A stretch of 64,000 bases of DNA from a virus, in IMG/VR virus record IMGVR_UViG_3300045988_166055, positions 79,505-143,504 of that record; one strand, 5' to 3'. Below, piece by piece: positions 5,465 through 43,219 of the stretch (its first letter is position 1; the number at the start of each line of letters is the position of its first letter). Both the position numbers and the translations under genes were made by a program. The notes below the pieces were generated by a model. The model made no database searches and was not told the origin of the DNA. It was given only the letters and a program-made list of their open reading frames with translations.

Positions 5465-5851
5465 GTGATAGATTTGAAGAAGGTAATACATGCTGCTGAA
5501 GAAGAATACAGTCAGATTCTATTTACTCCTTCATCTCTAGTTGATTTCTTAACTCAAGTAGACGAGCTTAAAGATGTCAACATAGGCGTAAATGATGACG
5601 GAGAAAATGTTTCAATCTCTATCGGGGATTCAACATATCAAATAAATCCTAAGTCAGTTACAAATATTGATGTATCTGATGATGATCTAGATCAAGCTTG
5701 TCAAGCGAACGAAAGTAATTATGACGAGCTTGAAGAGTCAGGTTCAATTGAAGTGAATGATTCAGTTGAATCGGGAATCATAAAACAGCTATTAAAGACC
5801 TTAGCAATAGGCGGAATAGTACGTTTAGCTGCTAAGGAATTGAAAAATTGA
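5465..5851 (+). CDS. hypothetical acidic protein
   Basis: GTG start after AAGGAG. It is 128 aa and its stop overlaps the next ORF. Confidence 0.5.
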   Translation: MIDLKKVIHAAEEEYSQILFTPSSLVDFLTQVDELKDVNIGVNDDGENVSISIGDSTYQINPKSVTNIDVSDDDLDQACQANESNYDELEESGSIEVNDSVESGIIKQLLKTLAIGGIVRLAAKELKN

Positions 5852-5862
5852 GGTATTGGAAT

Positions 5863-7248
5863 ATGAAAGATACTAGAAAGAAGATTGTATCTGATATAGA
5901 ATCAGAAAAGCCCAAGAACCCTGTCATTGGAATATTTGAAGGTGAGTGTGCTGATTCAAACATAACAAATGAGAATGGACTAGATATAACTAGACCTGTA
6001 TGGGAAAACATATTTAGTTCTGAATCGTATCAGCAAGCTATTGAACTTGGATGGTACATAGGATTCCTAGGACATCCCGATGATCCTGGATGTATGGACT
6101 TCCGAAATGCTTGTATTGTAATGACAGAAGGACATATAGATGATAACGGAAAAGTATATGGTAAATTTAATCTGATTGATACTCCTGTTGGTAGGACAGT
6201 TAAAACATTCATAGACGCAGGTGTAACATTCGGAATTTCTGTAAGAGGCGCAGGGGACATTGTAAACAATTCTGTTGATCCTGATACATTTGTATTTAGA
6301 GGATTTGACCTTGTATCGTTTCCTGCGTTTCCTGAAAGCATCCCTACTTTTACATCGATTGCAGCTTCTAGCGATGTAGAGTCCCAGAAGAAGTATAAAG
6401 CAATTTGTGCAGCAGTTAAAGAGAATCTACCTAACATTGATAGCTGCGAAGCTATTGATATTCTACAGTGTCAGTTTGCTGAACAGTCTGATGAATATAA
6501 AGCTTTAGAAGACAGAAAGAAAGAAATAAAAGGATGTAATTTAACTGACGATGATTTAAGTGAATGCGATGATGTAGACATTACAAAAGATAAAGTAGAG
6601 TCAATGACAAAACTTTATCTAGAACAGGTAGAAGCAAACAATCATCTGAAGAAAGAAAATCAAATTCTTTCAAGTAAATTAGCTTCAAACGAAATTGAAG
6701 CAAGACGAAAGATTTCTTCTATTAGTAGAATAACAGCAGATCAGATAAAATGTGCAACAGATGCAAAGGATGCTGCAGAGAAAAGATGCAAGCAATTAGT
6801 TGCAGCGTCAATCAGAATGAAAGAGACGATTTCGCAAGAAAGATCAAACAACCTTAAATATCTACAGAAGATAAGCGAAAGCAAGAATATTGTTGATTCT
6901 AAGGATTCTTTAATTTCTTCTCTAAAAACCAGACTCAATGAAACCGTCAATGCTTCTGCTAATGTAGAGAGAAGAACTTCAAACCTTGACGAACAGTTAA
7001 AGCGATCCAAGGCTGAAATAGTAGCTTGCAAAAAGATGCTTAAAGATTATCAGGATGCTTATGCAGAACTGTATTCGCAAGCAGTTGGAGCTGATCTTCA
7101 GAAGGTTAAAGTAACTGAATCAACAAGTGTAGCTTCACTTCGTTCTGCTATTACAAGCTCAATAAGTAGAAAACCATCCTCTATTAGAGAGCCTGAAGAA
7201 ATTGATGTAGATGATTGTTACTTTGACGATGACATGGTAACTATTTAA
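5863..7248 (+). CDS. prohead core protease (T4 gp21-like) fused to a coiled-coil scaffold-like C-terminal half
   Basis: GFLGHPDDPG and GISVRGAGD match the His and Ser motifs (GEL.HP / GVS.RG.G) of gp21-type proteases. The C-terminal 250 aa are heptad-rich. ATG 5863 has a GAGG RBS, and the gene lies just upstream of the capsid gene. Confidence 0.6.
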   Translation: MKDTRKKIVSDIESEKPKNPVIGIFEGECADSNITNENGLDITRPVWENIFSSESYQQAIELGWYIGFLGHPDDPGCMDFRNACIVMTEGHIDDNGKVYGKFNLIDTPVGRTVKTFIDAGVTFGISVRGAGDIVNNSVDPDTFVFRGFDLVSFPAFPESIPTFTSIAASSDVESQKKYKAICAAVKENLPNIDSCEAIDILQCQFAEQSDEYKALEDRKKEIKGCNLTDDDLSECDDVDITKDKVESMTKLYLEQVEANNHLKKENQILSSKLASNEIEARRKISSISRITADQIKCATDAKDAAEKRCKQLVAASIRMKETISQERSNNLKYLQKISESKNIVDSKDSLISSLKTRLNETVNASANVERRTSNLDEQLKRSKAEIVACKKMLKDYQDAYAELYSQAVGADLQKVKVTESTSVASLRSAITSSISRKPSSIREPEEIDVDDCYFDDDMVTI

Positions 7249-7279: not shown

Positions 7280-8647
7280 ATGATCACTAAGCGTTCCACT
7301 GCTCCTGCCCGCAGACCTGTCACTGCCGGTCAGAGCATTACTTCTGGCGTTCGTAATCGTAACGCTTCCGCTATTAAGTCCTCAGTAAATCTTACTCCGT
7401 CACAGAGAATGTTCGCTAATCAGATCGCTCGTAACTGTAGAAAGCCTGGCGCTATCATGGCAGCTACAAATACATCAAACATCATGGCTCGTCCCGACTT
7501 CCTGGACCTGCTGCCTGTGTTTGTTCAGAAGCTGATTGTAACTGACATCTTCGGTTCCGTTGCGATGCGTTCTCGTCAGCAGCTGGTTCCTTACTTCAAG
7601 TTCATTGCTGAGAACACTAAGGGAGAGACCAAGTCTGGTACCGTTATGTCTTCTCCGTTTGCTAACCGCCAGGGCGTTGATCCTAACTTTACTGGTCGGG
7701 TAGTAAAGAACGAAGAGGTTGACGGTCAGCTGATGTATACTCCTGTTCTGCCTGGCACTGTTACCATTAAGAGCGCTCAGGGAGTATTCGTTGATAAGGG
7801 TGACGGCAAGCTGTACAAAGCCGATACTCAGGAAGAATCAGGAACCATTGATTATGCTACCGGCGAGATTGGCACCCTGACAGGTGACATGACTGCTACC
7901 TACCAGTACGACAATGAGACTGTTGGTCCTGACACCAATGGCCAGTACGGTGCTAAGATGGGTAAGGGTTACCTGCAGCTTGATGAGTTCAATCTGGTCG
8001 CTGAGGCCAAGGAGCTCGCTTGCTACTGGAGTATCTATTCTGCATTTGCTGCTCAGCAAGAATATGGTTCCAACATCGCTGACATGGCCAAGGAGGCCGC
8101 TGTTGGTGAGATCACTGCTGAAATCAACACCTCTTGCCTGGATATGCTGATGCAAGCAGCTTCTTACAAGCCTGCTTTCAACTGGGATGCTTCTCCTGTT
8201 CTGTCTGGTGCAGTTGTTCCTTCTGATTACCTGAACATGTTCAAGCTGAAGCTGGGTCAGGCTGCTGCTTCTATCTACCAGCAGACTCGCATGACTCGCC
8301 CGAACCGTCTAGTGGTAGGTACTACCGCAGCTGAGTACATCGGCATGATCAACGGCTTCAAGGGTGACAACATCGATGACACTGTTGGTCCTTACAAGTT
8401 CGGTACTCTTGACCAGTTCGAGATATATGTCAATCCTTCTTACGATCCTGATTCTTGGGTCATGTGCTGCAAGAGTAACGACATTAGAAAGAACACGGCT
8501 CTGTTCGGCGAGTATATGCCTATCACCAACACTGATGTGGTTGGTCTGGCTAACATGTCCGCGCAGCAAGGCTATGCCACAATGTACGCAAGCAAGGTCG
8601 TCAACCCTGCCACTTGCGTGAAGGGCAAGATCCTAGGCACTTTCTAA
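7280..8647 (+). CDS. major capsid protein
   Basis: The 455-aa ORF has markedly higher GC and strong codon bias, as expected for a highly expressed gene. It follows the protease/scaffold and ends at a strong terminator. The antisense and overlapping ORFs inside it are shadows. Confidence 0.7.
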   Translation: MITKRSTAPARRPVTAGQSITSGVRNRNASAIKSSVNLTPSQRMFANQIARNCRKPGAIMAATNTSNIMARPDFLDLLPVFVQKLIVTDIFGSVAMRSRQQLVPYFKFIAENTKGETKSGTVMSSPFANRQGVDPNFTGRVVKNEEVDGQLMYTPVLPGTVTIKSAQGVFVDKGDGKLYKADTQEESGTIDYATGEIGTLTGDMTATYQYDNETVGPDTNGQYGAKMGKGYLQLDEFNLVAEAKELACYWSIYSAFAAQQEYGSNIADMAKEAAVGEITAEINTSCLDMLMQAASYKPAFNWDASPVLSGAVVPSDYLNMFKLKLGQAAASIYQQTRMTRPNRLVVGTTAAEYIGMINGFKGDNIDDTVGPYKFGTLDQFEIYVNPSYDPDSWVMCCKSNDIRKNTALFGEYMPITNTDVVGLANMSAQQGYATMYASKVVNPATCVKGKILGTF

Positions 8648-12548: not shown

Positions 12549-12714
12549 ATATAAAGGTGTAACAATCTATCTTTATTACTATGGGTGTTTTCTTTTCTAC
12601 GCTGAAAAGAATAAATATGGGCTAAAGCACGGACGGTGGAAATGGATTAGTTTTTGCAATACAGATGAAGCGGAACAATTCATAGACAAGCATATAGATA
12701 CTTTCTGTTGGTGA
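12529..12714 (+). CDS. possible small protein
   Basis: 61-aa ORF that overlaps the previous stop. RBS GGAGGA lies upstream. Confidence 0.3.
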   Translation: MPQRSYEYKGVTIYLYYYGCFLFYAEKNKYGLKHGRWKWISFCNTDEAEQFIDKHIDTFCW

Positions 12715-12730
12715 ACCTTATATTTTTATG
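12713..12730 (+). promoter_or_regulatory. class-2 promoter-like box
   Basis: GAACCTTATATTTTTATG. Confidence 0.45.
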
Positions 12731-12817
12731 TGATAGGCGGGAGATACTATATCTTTCGTTGTATGATGAAGTTAATAAAAAACAAAGATCACATAAATCA
12801 TTTTGGAGGTTATCTAA

Positions 12818-13222
12818 ATGAGTTACAAGATTACTATTAAGTTCACCAAGCCTGTTAAGGTTGAAGCATCTATTCCTACTTATCCAATTGCCCCTGAATT
12901 TGTTCTGGGTCAGTCTTATGTGGATGAGAAGGCTTTCCGTGACCAGGCAGGCGATACCGCTTATTCCAAGAACATTTGGGAGAAGGGTGAGTTCCTGATG
13001 GCTCAGGACCTGTCTGAGTTCCTAGGTGAAGTTTCTGTCCATCCTGGTGTTGTTCTTGCTTGCAAGTCCGCTATTCTGGCTGCTGAGGCTGCCGAAGCTT
13101 CTTCTGGTGAGAATGCTGGTTATGAGTTCATAACTGATGACTACAAAGACAAGATGCTGTACGAAGAGATCGGTCGTGCTCTTGCCGGTCAGGGATTCGA
13201 GGTAACTGTCGACCCTACGTAA
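12818..13222 (+). CDS. abundant small virion protein (decoration-like), short isoform
   Basis: 134 aa with a GGAGGT RBS. GC and codon bias resemble those of the capsid gene. Confidence 0.6.
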   Translation: MSYKITIKFTKPVKVEASIPTYPIAPEFVLGQSYVDEKAFRDQAGDTAYSKNIWEKGEFLMAQDLSEFLGEVSVHPGVVLACKSAILAAEAAEASSGENAGYEFITDDYKDKMLYEEIGRALAGQGFEVTVDPT

Positions 13223-13899
13223 AGGGTCAGGTTGATATTTCAGCTTCTGACGGAGAGGATGCTATCCAGAAAGCCATTTCAGCTAATCCGTCAGGAGCTT
13301 ATATCAAGCTGGCCCAGAATGTCTACCAAGGTGGCATTCAGGCAGAAGCTGGATCAAACATCACTATTGATCTAAATGGACATGAGCTAAAATGCGTGCC
13401 TCCATTTGTCGGATCTGATAGTAGCTATTCAAACGGATTGAGATTCATGAAGGGTTCAAAAGTTCTAATTAAGAACGGAACTGTCAAAACATCTTCTCCG
13501 GAGTTAGCTATTCTTATTCAGAACTTCGCAGACGAGTTGATTCTAGATAATGTAACATTGTCTGGAAAGCTTTCTACTCAGTACATTCTATCAAATAACT
13601 TCGGAAATGTTGTTATGAAGAATGGAACTACTGTAAAAGCATCTGGTGGTCATGTAGCATTTGATGCTCATTACGGCTTATCTCCTGAATATGACGATGG
13701 TGTTACAGTAAATATTGCGGATGACACTGTTAAGATAATTGGACTTGTAGAATATACTAAGCAGGAAGGAAAGTCAGATGAAGATTTCCTATCAAGGACA
13801 CATATCTACATACCTGTTGGATATGACCTTACTGCTCCAGAGGGATACAAGTTCCAGTTAACAGAAGATAAAACAAGACAAGAACTAGTTAAAGCGTGA
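13213..13899 (+). CDS. -1 frame extension of the preceding gene encoding a beta-helix-like domain (candidate frameshift product)
   Basis: The -1 frame is open from 13141. It has no ATG, GTG or TTG until GTG 13396, which itself has no RBS. The translation from 13222 on is domain-like: KGQVDISASDGEDAIQKAISANPSGAYIKLAQNVYQGGIQAEAGSNITIDLNG... Confidence 0.5.
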   Translation, partial: PYVKGQVDISASDGEDAIQKAISANPSGAYIKLAQNVYQGGIQAEAGSNITIDLNGHELKCVPPFVGSDSSYSNGLRFMKGSKVLIKNGTVKTSSPELAILIQNFADELILDNVTLSGKLSTQYILSNNFGNVVMKNGTTVKASGGHVAFDAHYGLSPEYDDGVTVNIADDTVKIIGLVEYTKQEGKSDEDFLSRTHIYIPVGYDLTAPEGYKFQLTEDKTRQELVKA

Positions 13900-13921
13900 T
13901 AGAGAGGAGGCCTAGTAAGAT

Positions 13922-14632
13922 ATGACTATGGATGAAGTAACTGCTCAAGTTGGATTCTTACTAGGCTTTCCTACTAACGAGAATGTAGAAGAGGTTGATC
14001 TAAGGCAAGCAGTATTGATTGCATTTAGAGAACTAAAAAGATACATTCGTCAGTCAGTGGAAAAGACTGTCCCGTTTCAAACTAGAATAGACTTGCTCAA
14101 GCAAGATATCCATACAAACAAAGTTCTCAATGTTCAAGCTGCCTATCCTAGAATAGGCCTTACAATGAGTAACATAGACAGTGGTAATGTTTTCCAGGTT
14201 GCTGCCGCTGTAAACGCCTATAGTACGATAGGCAACACAAGTTCAATCAACATAGATCCTATAATGTCTGAACTTGCAATGGCTCAAGTCCGTAACACAA
14301 TTTCTACTGATTTTCAATGGAAATATGATCCGTATAATCAAGTAGTTTATGTTACGCACAGAGATCCATTACCTGCAATGGTAACTATACGATATGTTCC
14401 AGATTTGCAGGATGTATCAGAGATTCAAGGAACAACCTGGATTGACTACTTAGTCCGGATGAGCCTAGCATTCGCAAAAATATCGTTAGGCAGATCTCGG
14501 TCAAAATATACAATTGAGGGCTCTAATGTAACACTTGACGGTGATACACTTCTTCAAGAAGCTAACGCAGAGTTAGAAGCTATAAGAGGTGAACTTGAGC
14601 CTAAGAAAAGTAGACTTGTTGTTTTGAACTAA
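13922..14632 (+). CDS. virion structural protein (possible head-tail connector/adaptor)
   Basis: 236 aa with a GAGGAGG RBS, located in the structural gene neighbourhood. No diagnostic motif was recognised. Confidence 0.35.
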   Translation: MTMDEVTAQVGFLLGFPTNENVEEVDLRQAVLIAFRELKRYIRQSVEKTVPFQTRIDLLKQDIHTNKVLNVQAAYPRIGLTMSNIDSGNVFQVAAAVNAYSTIGNTSSINIDPIMSELAMAQVRNTISTDFQWKYDPYNQVVYVTHRDPLPAMVTIRYVPDLQDVSEIQGTTWIDYLVRMSLAFAKISLGRSRSKYTIEGSNVTLDGDTLLQEANAELEAIRGELEPKKSRLVVLN

Positions 14633-14657: not shown

Positions 14658-15059
14658 ATGTTTGTTTCTAAGAAAAACACTAAGAAGGTAACTGCTAGCG
14701 ACGATCTGGATACCGAAGTGATTGAGCCCGAAATGGATGAAGATGTTGTCGATGACACTCCTGATGCTGATGAAGATGTAAATGTTGCCCCTGAGGCAAC
14801 TGATCTTCTATTTGAAGCAGAGGATGTAGCGCAGCTGGTTGCAGAAGTGACTGGTCAGCCTGTCGATGTTGACACAGCTGAAGATGGTAATTCTGTTGAA
14901 TTCACTGTCGGTGAAGATGTTTTCACTGTTACTGCTGAAGGTGACGAGGAAGTTCTGGAAGCTGTTCGAAAGCCACTGAAGAAAAAGAAGCCTGTGTCTG
15001 CTTCTACTAATAGAAAGCCTGCTGGTAAGACCGTTCGCAAGCTGCCTAGCAAGAAGTAA
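14658..15059 (+). CDS. bipartite acidic/basic protein (acidic N-terminal region, KKKK-rich tail)
   Basis: Higher-GC codon usage. The C-terminus is KKKKPVSASTNRKPAGKTVRKLPSKK. Confidence 0.5.
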   Translation: MFVSKKNTKKVTASDDLDTEVIEPEMDEDVVDDTPDADEDVNVAPEATDLLFEAEDVAQLVAEVTGQPVDVDTAEDGNSVEFTVGEDVFTVTAEGDEEVLEAVRKPLKKKKPVSASTNRKPAGKTVRKLPSKK

Positions 15060-38536: not shown

Positions 38537-38611
38537 TGTCAATTAGTTTATGAGGTAAAACATTGTAGCTTAAGATACAATAAGTTGGTTCAATTCCAAC
38601 ATTGACAGCCA
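38537..38611 (+). tRNA. non-canonical tRNA-like gene with an 8-nt anticodon loop GCTTAAGA and a 3-nt variable loop
   Basis: Acceptor TGTCAAT/ATTGACA, D-arm GTTT/AAAC, T-arm GTTGG-TTCAATT-CCAAC, G73 and encoded CCA. The anticodon stem TTGTA/TACAA leaves 8 loop nucleotides. The most canonical reading is anticodon UAA on a short-variable-arm body. Confidence 0.5.
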
Positions 38612-42705: not shown

Positions 42706-42781
42706 CCGGGTGTAGCTCAGATGGTAGAGCGCGTGGTTTGGGACCACGATGCCGCTGGTTCGAATCCAGTCACTCGGACCA
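42706..42781 (+). tRNA. tRNA-Pro (anticodon UGG)
   Basis: Acceptor CCGGGTG/CACTCGG, loop TTTGGGA, CCA. Confidence 0.9.
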
Positions 42782-43123: not shown

Positions 43124-43219
43124 CCTGCCTTAGCATAACGGTAGTGCAACCGGCCTATACCCGGCATAAGGCTCTAGATTGGGGCAAGATCTCGGTTCGA
43201 ATCCGAGGGGCAGGACCAT
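43124..43219 (+). tRNA. aberrant 96-nt tRNA-like gene B (giant extra arm; loop CCTATAC; CCA encoded)
   Basis: Acceptor CCTGCCT/GGGCAGG, D-arm GCAT-AACGGTA-GTGC, and a T-arm CTCGG-TTCGAAT-CCGAG identical to gene A, with A73. The anticodon stem CCGG/CCGG carries loop CCTATAC. The variable region is 25 nt. Confidence 0.45.

Follow-up and report, generated by a model that had tools for sequence, protein, structure and literature searches.

A probable programmed −1 ribosomal frameshift cassette in a family of uncultured T4-like phages, predicted to append a beta-solenoid domain to a small head/neck-module protein

In a 64,000-nucleotide (nt) stretch of the viral record IMGVR_UViG_3300045988_166055 (positions 79,505 to 143,504; this whole stretch is referred to as the window, and all coordinates are counted from its first letter), two overlapping open reading frames (ORFs), here called UP and DN, probably form a programmed −1 ribosomal frameshift cassette (rough probability 0.75). 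Confidence is higher for the family as a whole than for the window, and the programmed shift is regarded as conserved because a constant −1 geometry and in-phase slippery heptamers recur across the relatives. The evidence consists of the ORF geometry and its conservation, the heptamers of the relatives, selection on the coding sequence, a predicted covarying hairpin and a contrast in codon bias. The phage is an uncultured T4-like phage of ~150 kb, its host probably being a gut Firmicute, and UP and DN lie within its head/neck module. What is described here is a known phage strategy, seen in a new family and at an unusual slip site.

Reading frames at the UP/DN junction

The elements of the proposed cassette are the following:
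12805-12810, + strand: Shine-Dalgarno sequence (SD) GGAGGT, 7 nt 5' of the UP ATG, read from the sequence and found in the SD survey
12818-13222, + strand: UP, the 0-frame ORF of 134 amino acids (aa), ending with TAA 13220-22; codon bias like that of the major capsid protein (MCP), conserved family of 112-157 aa
13210-13216, + strand: putative shift site C_GAC_CCU, aligned with A_AAA_AAC of L001/L003 and, relative to the stop, in the position held by the runs of the other relatives
13217-13223, + strand: 7-nt spacer ACGUAAA, in which ACG, a rare Thr codon, precedes TAA 13220-22, the stop of UP
13224-13315, + strand: 92-nt extended hairpin, a putative frameshift stimulator (folding z −6.09, covariation)
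13216-13899, + strand: DN, 227 codons and TGA in the −1 frame, the C-terminal portion of the predicted trans-frame product
13222-13395, + strand: DN segment without ATG, GTG or TTG, yet under purifying selection in the −1 frame

In the −1 frame, TGA 13138-40 is the last stop before a stretch that stays open from 13141 until TGA 13897-99. Its 252 sense codons are far above the chance expectation at 38% GC, and the frame is also conserved and under purifying selection. The earliest ATG, GTG or TTG of this frame is GTG 13396, where an SD is absent; in a survey of the window, an SD of at least 4 nt was present at 42 of 54 ORF starts. The 3' end of UP reads GTC GAC CCT ACG TAA (GAC CCT ACG TAA = 13211-13222), the overlapping −1 codon at 13213-15 being CCC, and a tRNA-Pro(UGG) gene is present at 42706-42781. 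Direct reading of the overlap 13141-13222 revealed no X_XXY_YYZ heptamer. An earlier sequence-only reading of the window had listed the ORF with its TAA, the −1 frame lacking a start codon before GTG 13396, the missing ribosome-binding site there, the missing heptamer, and the CCT/CCC overlap together with the tRNA-Pro gene, and had proposed a programmed −1 frameshift from them; each of these observations was borne out, and the proposal itself is upheld by the heptamers of the relatives, the hairpin behind its 7-nt spacer and the purifying selection on the start-less segment.

The predicted UP-DN fusion comprises 133 + 227 = 360 aa, with the predicted junction peptide ...GFEVTVDP followed by YVKGQVDISASDGEDAIQK. 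The ACG codon is rare in the window (29 of 767 Thr codons). In a scan for promoters and terminators, nothing resembling a terminator was found between UP and DN, and promoter-like sites were as frequent as expected by chance. In an Rfam scan of 12700-14000, no family was found for the region; the only match was a sub-threshold one to the plant miRNA family MIR844 (13894-13980, 25.5 bits vs a gathering score of 70), which spans the DN stop and the start of the downstream gp13-like gene and was judged to be due to chance. A 47-aa ORF with a TTG start (13232-13375), located in the UP frame after the stop, is most likely spurious, as the corresponding frame of the relatives closes within a few codons.

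Distribution among relatives

The conceptual 360-aa fusion was used as search query, separate searches were made with UP, and a profile search was run over 1.84 billion representatives; 73 loci (L numbers) were fetched, and the stop-to-stop ORFs of the first 57 were scored with hidden Markov models of UP and DN. Matches to the fusion covered the DN part only and comprised eight proteins of 198-240 aa, with called starts at non-homologous positions, and a ninth of 527 aa. The UP search yielded 31 close clusters, every one of 127-135 aa, and the UP profile search gave 31 further relatives, nearly all of 112-157 aa. A single ORF joining UP and DN in frame was found in none of the 31 close UP clusters, and DN was absent from all 25 inspected profile-search sequences. 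Searches of the region, UP and DN against 50,697 GenBank phage records (blastn/tblastn) gave no match, and a degenerate DNA pattern scan of viral contigs revealed no loci beyond those already found.

Among the first 57 loci, wherever both genes were present, DN was always in the −1 frame of UP, with an overlap of 16-82 nt. Approximately 26 distinct UP/DN junction sequences, including that of the window, were obtained, with identities down to 41% for DN and 25% for UP. The relatives are contigs of 113-166 kb from human-gut and other metagenomes, and dozens of separately made assemblies, representing different samples and different clades, show the same −1 break. Thus, the overlap and the −1 ORF are conserved in the orthologues, a comparison the sequence-only reading had proposed as a check; no conserved independent SD-bearing start for DN was found in the relatives. 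UP is a core gene: in DN-less relatives, it sits directly between the MCP gene and the gp13-like gene, or directly 5' of the gp13-like gene (L071-73).

The analysis corrects the annotation for a whole family of uncultured gut phages, where UP and a truncated DN are listed as unrelated hypothetical proteins. A relative with 94-96% identity is found under BFVD/UniProt A0A8S5UCN0 and A0A8S5UCI6 (Siphoviridae sp. ctgN495; also L068:2130-2582), recorded as two separate uncharacterised proteins with DN cut to 150 aa from an internal start. This record is labelled 'Siphoviridae' despite its T4-like gene content.

Shift site in the relatives and its putative counterpart in the window

Most relatives carry a classical slippery heptamer in correct X_XXY_YYZ phase, located 0-1 codon 5' of the stop. 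Their junctions, written in the 0 frame with the heptamer in brackets, are:
L001-3: GT[A AAA AAC] GCA TAA
L018: TC[A AAA AAC] GCG TAA
L031-35: TC[A AAA AAC] followed by the stop
L004/16/24: AC[A AAA AAA] TAG
L005/17/25: AC[A AAA AAA] GCA/TCA followed by the stop
L030: CTG GGG GAA TAA, a G-run

The smallest overlap, 16 nt in L003, contains little except the heptamer. The window and its relatives at 95-98% (L008-13, L021, L026, L068) read GAC/AAC CCT ACG/ATG TAA, and a sister clade at 70% reads TCC CCT ATG TAA. In a column-for-column alignment, the A_AAA_AAC of L001/L003 corresponds to C_GAC_CCU in the window and to U_UCC_CCU in the sister clade. At C_GAC_CCU, re-pairing is possible for tRNA-Pro only, from CCU 13214-16 to CCC 13213-15. 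The penultimate codon of UP varies within the sister clade, being CCU in 17, CUU in 8 and UCU in 3 of 28 clusters (L014/L015/L022/L028 vs L023/L067 vs L066).

Read in the −1 frame, two substitutions, ACG to ATG and, in L023/L067, CCC to CCT, leave Tyr and Pro unchanged; read in the 0 frame, they replace Thr by Met and Pro by Leu, which fits a shift at or before the CCU codon. The overlaps of the relatives confine it to the last 16-22 nt, corresponding to about the last 4-5 UP codons, with the carrier retained whole. For the window, we infer that CCU is the slip codon and that slippage there is a minority event.

Three other candidates were rejected. Slippage at a more 5' point of the 82-nt overlap (e.g., GGA to GGG, 13192-95) is incompatible with the TGA present there in the −1 frame of the sister clade. 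The rare, 'hungry' ACG codon is not required as a conserved stimulator, since ATG takes its place in L068 and the sister clade. Bypassing of the T4 gene 60 type was dismissed because the sole downstream ACG (13250-52) lies in the 0 frame and −1 conservation begins before the stop.

Taken together, the clades combine one conserved stimulator with a naturally graded set of shift sites, namely A_AAA_AAC, A_AAA_AAA, a G-run, U_UCC_CCU/CUU/UCU and C_GAC_CCU, and this turnover is the most unusual aspect of the system. A more speculative idea, to which we give well under even odds, is that the hairpin and its 7-nt spacer, rather than the slippery sequence, are the main determinant, and that an ancestral A-rich heptamer was replaced by C_GAC_CCU in the window clade. 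If so, natural shift-site turnover would adjust how many virion subunits carry the domain relative to those that are plain, and the clades would constitute a natural series for −1 frameshifting with minimal or no P-site re-pairing.

Selection on the segment without start codons

The ratio of non-synonymous to synonymous substitution (dN/dS, Nei-Gojobori) for 13222-13395 was 0.00-0.15 against close relatives and 0.14 against L028, equal to that of the rest of DN (0.06-0.14; DN, 0.06-0.15). The segment aligns with all homologues, and residue conservation of DN reaches the UP stop. The AlphaFold2 (AF2) model places it confidently within the domain, with predicted local distance difference test (pLDDT) values of 79-97 from fusion residue 131 on. 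Being selected, aligned and modelled in this way, the segment renders translation from GTG 13396 alone untenable.

Predicted downstream RNA hairpin

The predicted hairpin is composed of an outer helix (13224-30/13309-15), a second helix (13232-38/13301-07) and an inner helix (13242-54/13287-99). Its minimum free energy is −48.5 kcal/mol (z −6.09), and none of 200 dinucleotide shuffles was as stable. The base of the hairpin lies exactly 7 nt 3' of CCU, with the UP stop inside the spacer. The equivalent hairpins of L001/L003 (−39 and −45 kcal/mol, z −8 and −10.6) begin exactly 7 nt after A_AAA_AAC, and the main stem of the sister clade likewise begins at +8. Stable extended hairpins were also predicted for L005/17/25, L018 and L004 (z −3 to −5).

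Covariation was examined in a gap-free alignment of 16 sequences from three clades (window, sister and L001/L003). Pairing was retained in 85.9% of cells, as compared with ≤46% when the 3' partner was slid, and the outer helix was 96% paired. Eight pairs were changed on both sides, seven of them in the inner helix; an example is CUGACGGA:UCCGUCAG in the window vs CUUAGGUG:CACCUAAG in L001. A U-tract 3' of the hairpin was not found. The hairpin may have an alternative or additional role in mRNA stability.

Proposed mechanism and alternative explanations

According to the proposed mechanism, most ribosomes would terminate at the TAA and yield the abundant, presumably structural UP of 134 aa, and a minority, stalled against the 92-nt hairpin at the mRNA entrance, would slip by −1 in the last UP codons. 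The likeliest event would be a move of tRNA-Pro from CCU 13214-16 to CCC 13213-15, either in the A site during translocation or in the P site, the slip site being followed by the rare ACG and the stop codon. Slipped ribosomes would read the −1 frame to 13899 and produce the 360-aa protein, whose N-terminal UP part would place it in the same assembly site as UP, with the C-terminal beta-solenoid displayed as an accessory, probably glycan-binding, module.

Several results weigh against a programmed frameshift as set out here. The window has no canonical heptamer, and a P-site tRNA-Asp cannot re-pair in C_GAC_CCU. Among the CCU, CUU and UCU variants of the sister clade, the dN/dS of DN is 0.00-0.13; DN selection is thus kept despite CUU and UCU, and Pro re-pairing is not essential in that clade. 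The slip from CCU to CCC put forward in the sequence-only reading, therefore, fits the window clade and is not the whole story. For the sister clade, two possibilities are that its shared U_UCC re-pairs to UUC with the help of a G-U pair, or that the demands on re-pairing are lax. As for the hairpin, most members of the sister clade have lost the inner helix, the single sequences L008 and L013 each weaken one pair of the outer helix, and the distant clades L031-35 and L016/24 have weak predicted downstream structure (z about −1 to −2). Finally, UP has no recognisable fold or family, and so its label as a virion protein is a putative one.

An independent start of DN, either at a non-canonical codon or by termination-reinitiation after the UP stop, was considered, with ATT 13237, ~11 nt after the SD-like AAGGG 13222-26, as the candidate codon. 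In three clades (window, sister and L001/L003), the stop is followed by AAAGGG, ATT or ATA codons are found in frame nearby, and a GTG overlaps the stop in L004. We nevertheless consider this explanation unlikely: the positions of the near-cognate codons are not conserved, several clades have none, L031-35 are among the clades without any SD-preceded one, and the GTG of L004 has no SD and stands directly after A_AAA_AAA. Moreover, conservation of the −1 frame (P-Y-V-K-G-Q) and the changes synonymous only in this frame begin 5' of the stop, and an independent start would leave the in-phase heptamers of the relatives without a role. Translation from GTG 13396, yielding the 167-aa protein of the ORF track, would use the earliest canonical start codon, and gene callers as well as the ctgN495 UniProt record choose similar internal starts (150-aa product). 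This is highly improbable, given the missing SD, the 58 codons 5' of the GTG that are selected like the rest of DN, aligned in all homologues and part of the confidently modelled fold (pLDDT 79-97), and the differing, non-homologous positions of the called starts in the relatives.

A frame change made by the RNA polymerase through transcriptional slippage on a homopolymer is established for long A/T runs (PMC5009743), and runs of 6-7 A are present at the site in relatives. However, the C runs of the window clade (CCC) and of the sister clade (CCCC, CCC or CC) are too short for it. The runs of the relatives are always in X_XXY_YYZ phase, which is relevant to the ribosome and not to the polymerase, and a hairpin after a 7-nt spacer is a ribosomal signature; this explanation is accordingly very doubtful. 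An assembly or sequencing indel, or decay of a once-fused gene into a pseudogene, could likewise leave two conserved coding parts separated by a one-base change of frame. Both are effectively refuted, because the same −1 break recurs in dozens of independent assemblies of several clades, all 31 close UP clusters end at the same place, and DN is intact and under selection (dN/dS 0.0-0.15); the concern about an assembly indel, expressed already in the sequence-only reading, is settled by this recurrence. Weighed together, the programmed −1 shift is the reading we retain.

UP, the proposed carrier protein

Codon scores, comparing MCP-like usage with that of the rest of the genome, were +0.29 per codon for UP, +0.45 for MCP and −0.32 for DN, in agreement with the capsid-like codon bias ascribed to UP in the sequence-only reading. 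Of 50 ORFs tested, UP was the sole strongly MCP-like one besides MCP; the next highest score was +0.08, and 47 of the 48 others were negative. An MCP-like UP joined to a DN that is not MCP-like fits an abundant product with a rarely translated extension. The SD of UP is, in addition, a strong one.

Comparison of UP and DN with Pfam and PHROGs gave no match, except for a sub-threshold NPCBM match on DN, and profile searches of both against PDB sequences returned nothing meaningful. The AF2 model of UP, built for the protein alone with a diverse alignment, shows an α/β fold of moderate confidence (pLDDT 73), for which a Foldseek search of the PDB gave no match. From synteny and codon bias, we infer that UP is a virion protein of the head or neck.

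Two distant relatives of UP, P0051 and P0068, carry an in-frame Big_2 immunoglobulin (Ig)-like domain attached via a linker that is acidic or rich in Pro; P0051 scores 23.8 bits, which exceeds the cutoff, and P0068 scores 21.4 bits, which falls just short of it. P0051 (L070:216-887) lies directly 5' of the gp13-like gene, in the same genomic place as UP. This implies that UP is a carrier onto which varied display domains are grafted, either in frame or by frameshift.

A very acidic ORF of 133 aa (14658-15059), located immediately 3' of the gp13-like gene, has a codon score of +0.08 and no family match; it may represent another abundant head or neck component.

DN, the proposed appended domain

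The AF2 model of DN is a separate, confident domain (pLDDT >90) made up of a stack of short strands. The top Foldseek matches in the PDB were nearly all right-handed beta-helices, namely PL3 pectate lyases, pectin methylesterases and tailspikes, with E = 0.1-3 and TM-scores ≤0.44; a structure search of BFVD for DN gave the same picture, and Pfam Beta_helix did not match DN. DN is confidently modelled as a beta-solenoid, beta-helix-like domain, with structural matches that are non-significant. Of the sequence-only proposal of a virion protein bearing a beta-helix-like domain, the domain is supported by the model, with Foldseek E values of at least 0.1, and the location in the virion is suggested by synteny and codon bias.

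A DN-like domain is also found at the C-terminus of the tail-fibre-like protein P0009 (Phage_tail_C motif). In bacterial surface proteins of 770-1490 aa (L037, L040, L041, L056), DN-like domains occur as well, sometimes repeated, and these proteins carry SLH, CWB2, Listeria-Bacteroides repeat or Beta_helix domains. Occurrence in both tail-fibre-like and bacterial surface proteins suggests that DN is a surface-exposed, probably glycan-directed module and that the host is a Firmicute; it also hints at exchange between phage and Firmicute cell-surface proteins. Being common to Firmicute cell-surface proteins, the module is a candidate for mediating adhesion to glycans of the host or of mucosa.

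Comparison with known systems

Frameshift isoforms of capsid or tail proteins are known from T7/T3 gene 10A/10B, the major head protein of Lactobacillus phage A2, Cps of Listeria phages A118/A500 (−1), and Cps and Tsh of PSA (+1), and Ig-like domains of phage structural proteins may be added in frame or by frameshift (PMC5009743). As in these isoforms, the UP-DN shift lies near the 3' end of a highly expressed gene, UP being presumably structural, and would give a minority form extended at the C-terminus by an extra, here predicted, folded domain. A proline codon beside the stop or structure is shared with the Listeria phages, and in-frame and frameshifted add-ons coexist here as in the whole group, with UP and Big_2 joined in frame and UP and DN by −1. 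Unlike in that group, the carrier is a 134-aa protein of no recognised fold instead of the major capsid protein and belongs to a T4-like lineage, the add-on is a predicted beta-solenoid of ~225 aa instead of an Ig-like domain, the window clade has no heptamer, and the system is known from sequence only. SPP1 gp17.1* is another case of a C-terminal display domain appended by frameshifting, Ig-like domains being the commonest ones so appended. The present family extends the strategy of a carrier protein plus an optional display domain to T4-like phages and a beta-helix module.

The canonical bacterial −1 cassettes of dnaX and IS3/IS911 consist of A_AAA_AAG, a spacer and a 3' stem-loop (PMC5009743). 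The relatives resemble them in having A_AAA_AAC or A_AAA_AAA, a 7-nt spacer and a stable 3' hairpin, of which the window keeps spacer and hairpin. In contrast to these cassettes, the window has C_GAC_CCU as its putative site, its hairpin reaches an unusual length of 92 nt with three helices, the spacer includes the 0-frame stop, and a conserved upstream SD-like stimulator was not established for UP-DN.

As in lambda gpG/gpGT, a conserved −1 shift close to the 3' end of a small ORF would set a fixed ratio of short to long product in UP-DN. A role as tail assembly chaperone of the G/GT type was rejected, since UP-DN lies between the capsid module and the neck gene and not between the tail tube and tape measure genes. 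Tail assembly chaperones are absent from virions, and the codon bias of UP is of the type of an abundant virion component. A functional analogy to T4 Hoc/Soc and fibritin is possible, as accessory surface proteins displaying a binding domain; the position of UP-DN next to the gp13-like gene resembles that of wac (fibritin), which in T4 lies immediately 5' of gene 13. Similarity in sequence or fold to Hoc/Soc or fibritin was not detected, and the comparison is one of analogy only.

Genome context

The window has a GC content of ~37%, and nearly all genes are on the + strand. The genes that define the surroundings of UP-DN are:
941-2824: baseplate-wedge-like gene
5848-7248: prohead protease (Peptidase_S77)
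7280-8647, + strand: gp23-like MCP (PF07068, E = 4e-21)
13922-14632, + strand: T4 gp13-like neck protein gene, the conserved downstream neighbour (match to the PHROG head-tail adaptor; orthologues match PF26809 Phage_T4_gp13)
51-54 kb: tail fibre genes

A tRNA block of 17 genes is located at 37.7-45.2 kb. Within it, ARAGORN reported a tRNA at 38537-38611 with the undetermined two-base anticodon '(ta)' and a tRNA-Ile(TAT) at 43124-43218 that, at 95 nt, is unusually long and may hold an intron or insertion or be a mis-call.

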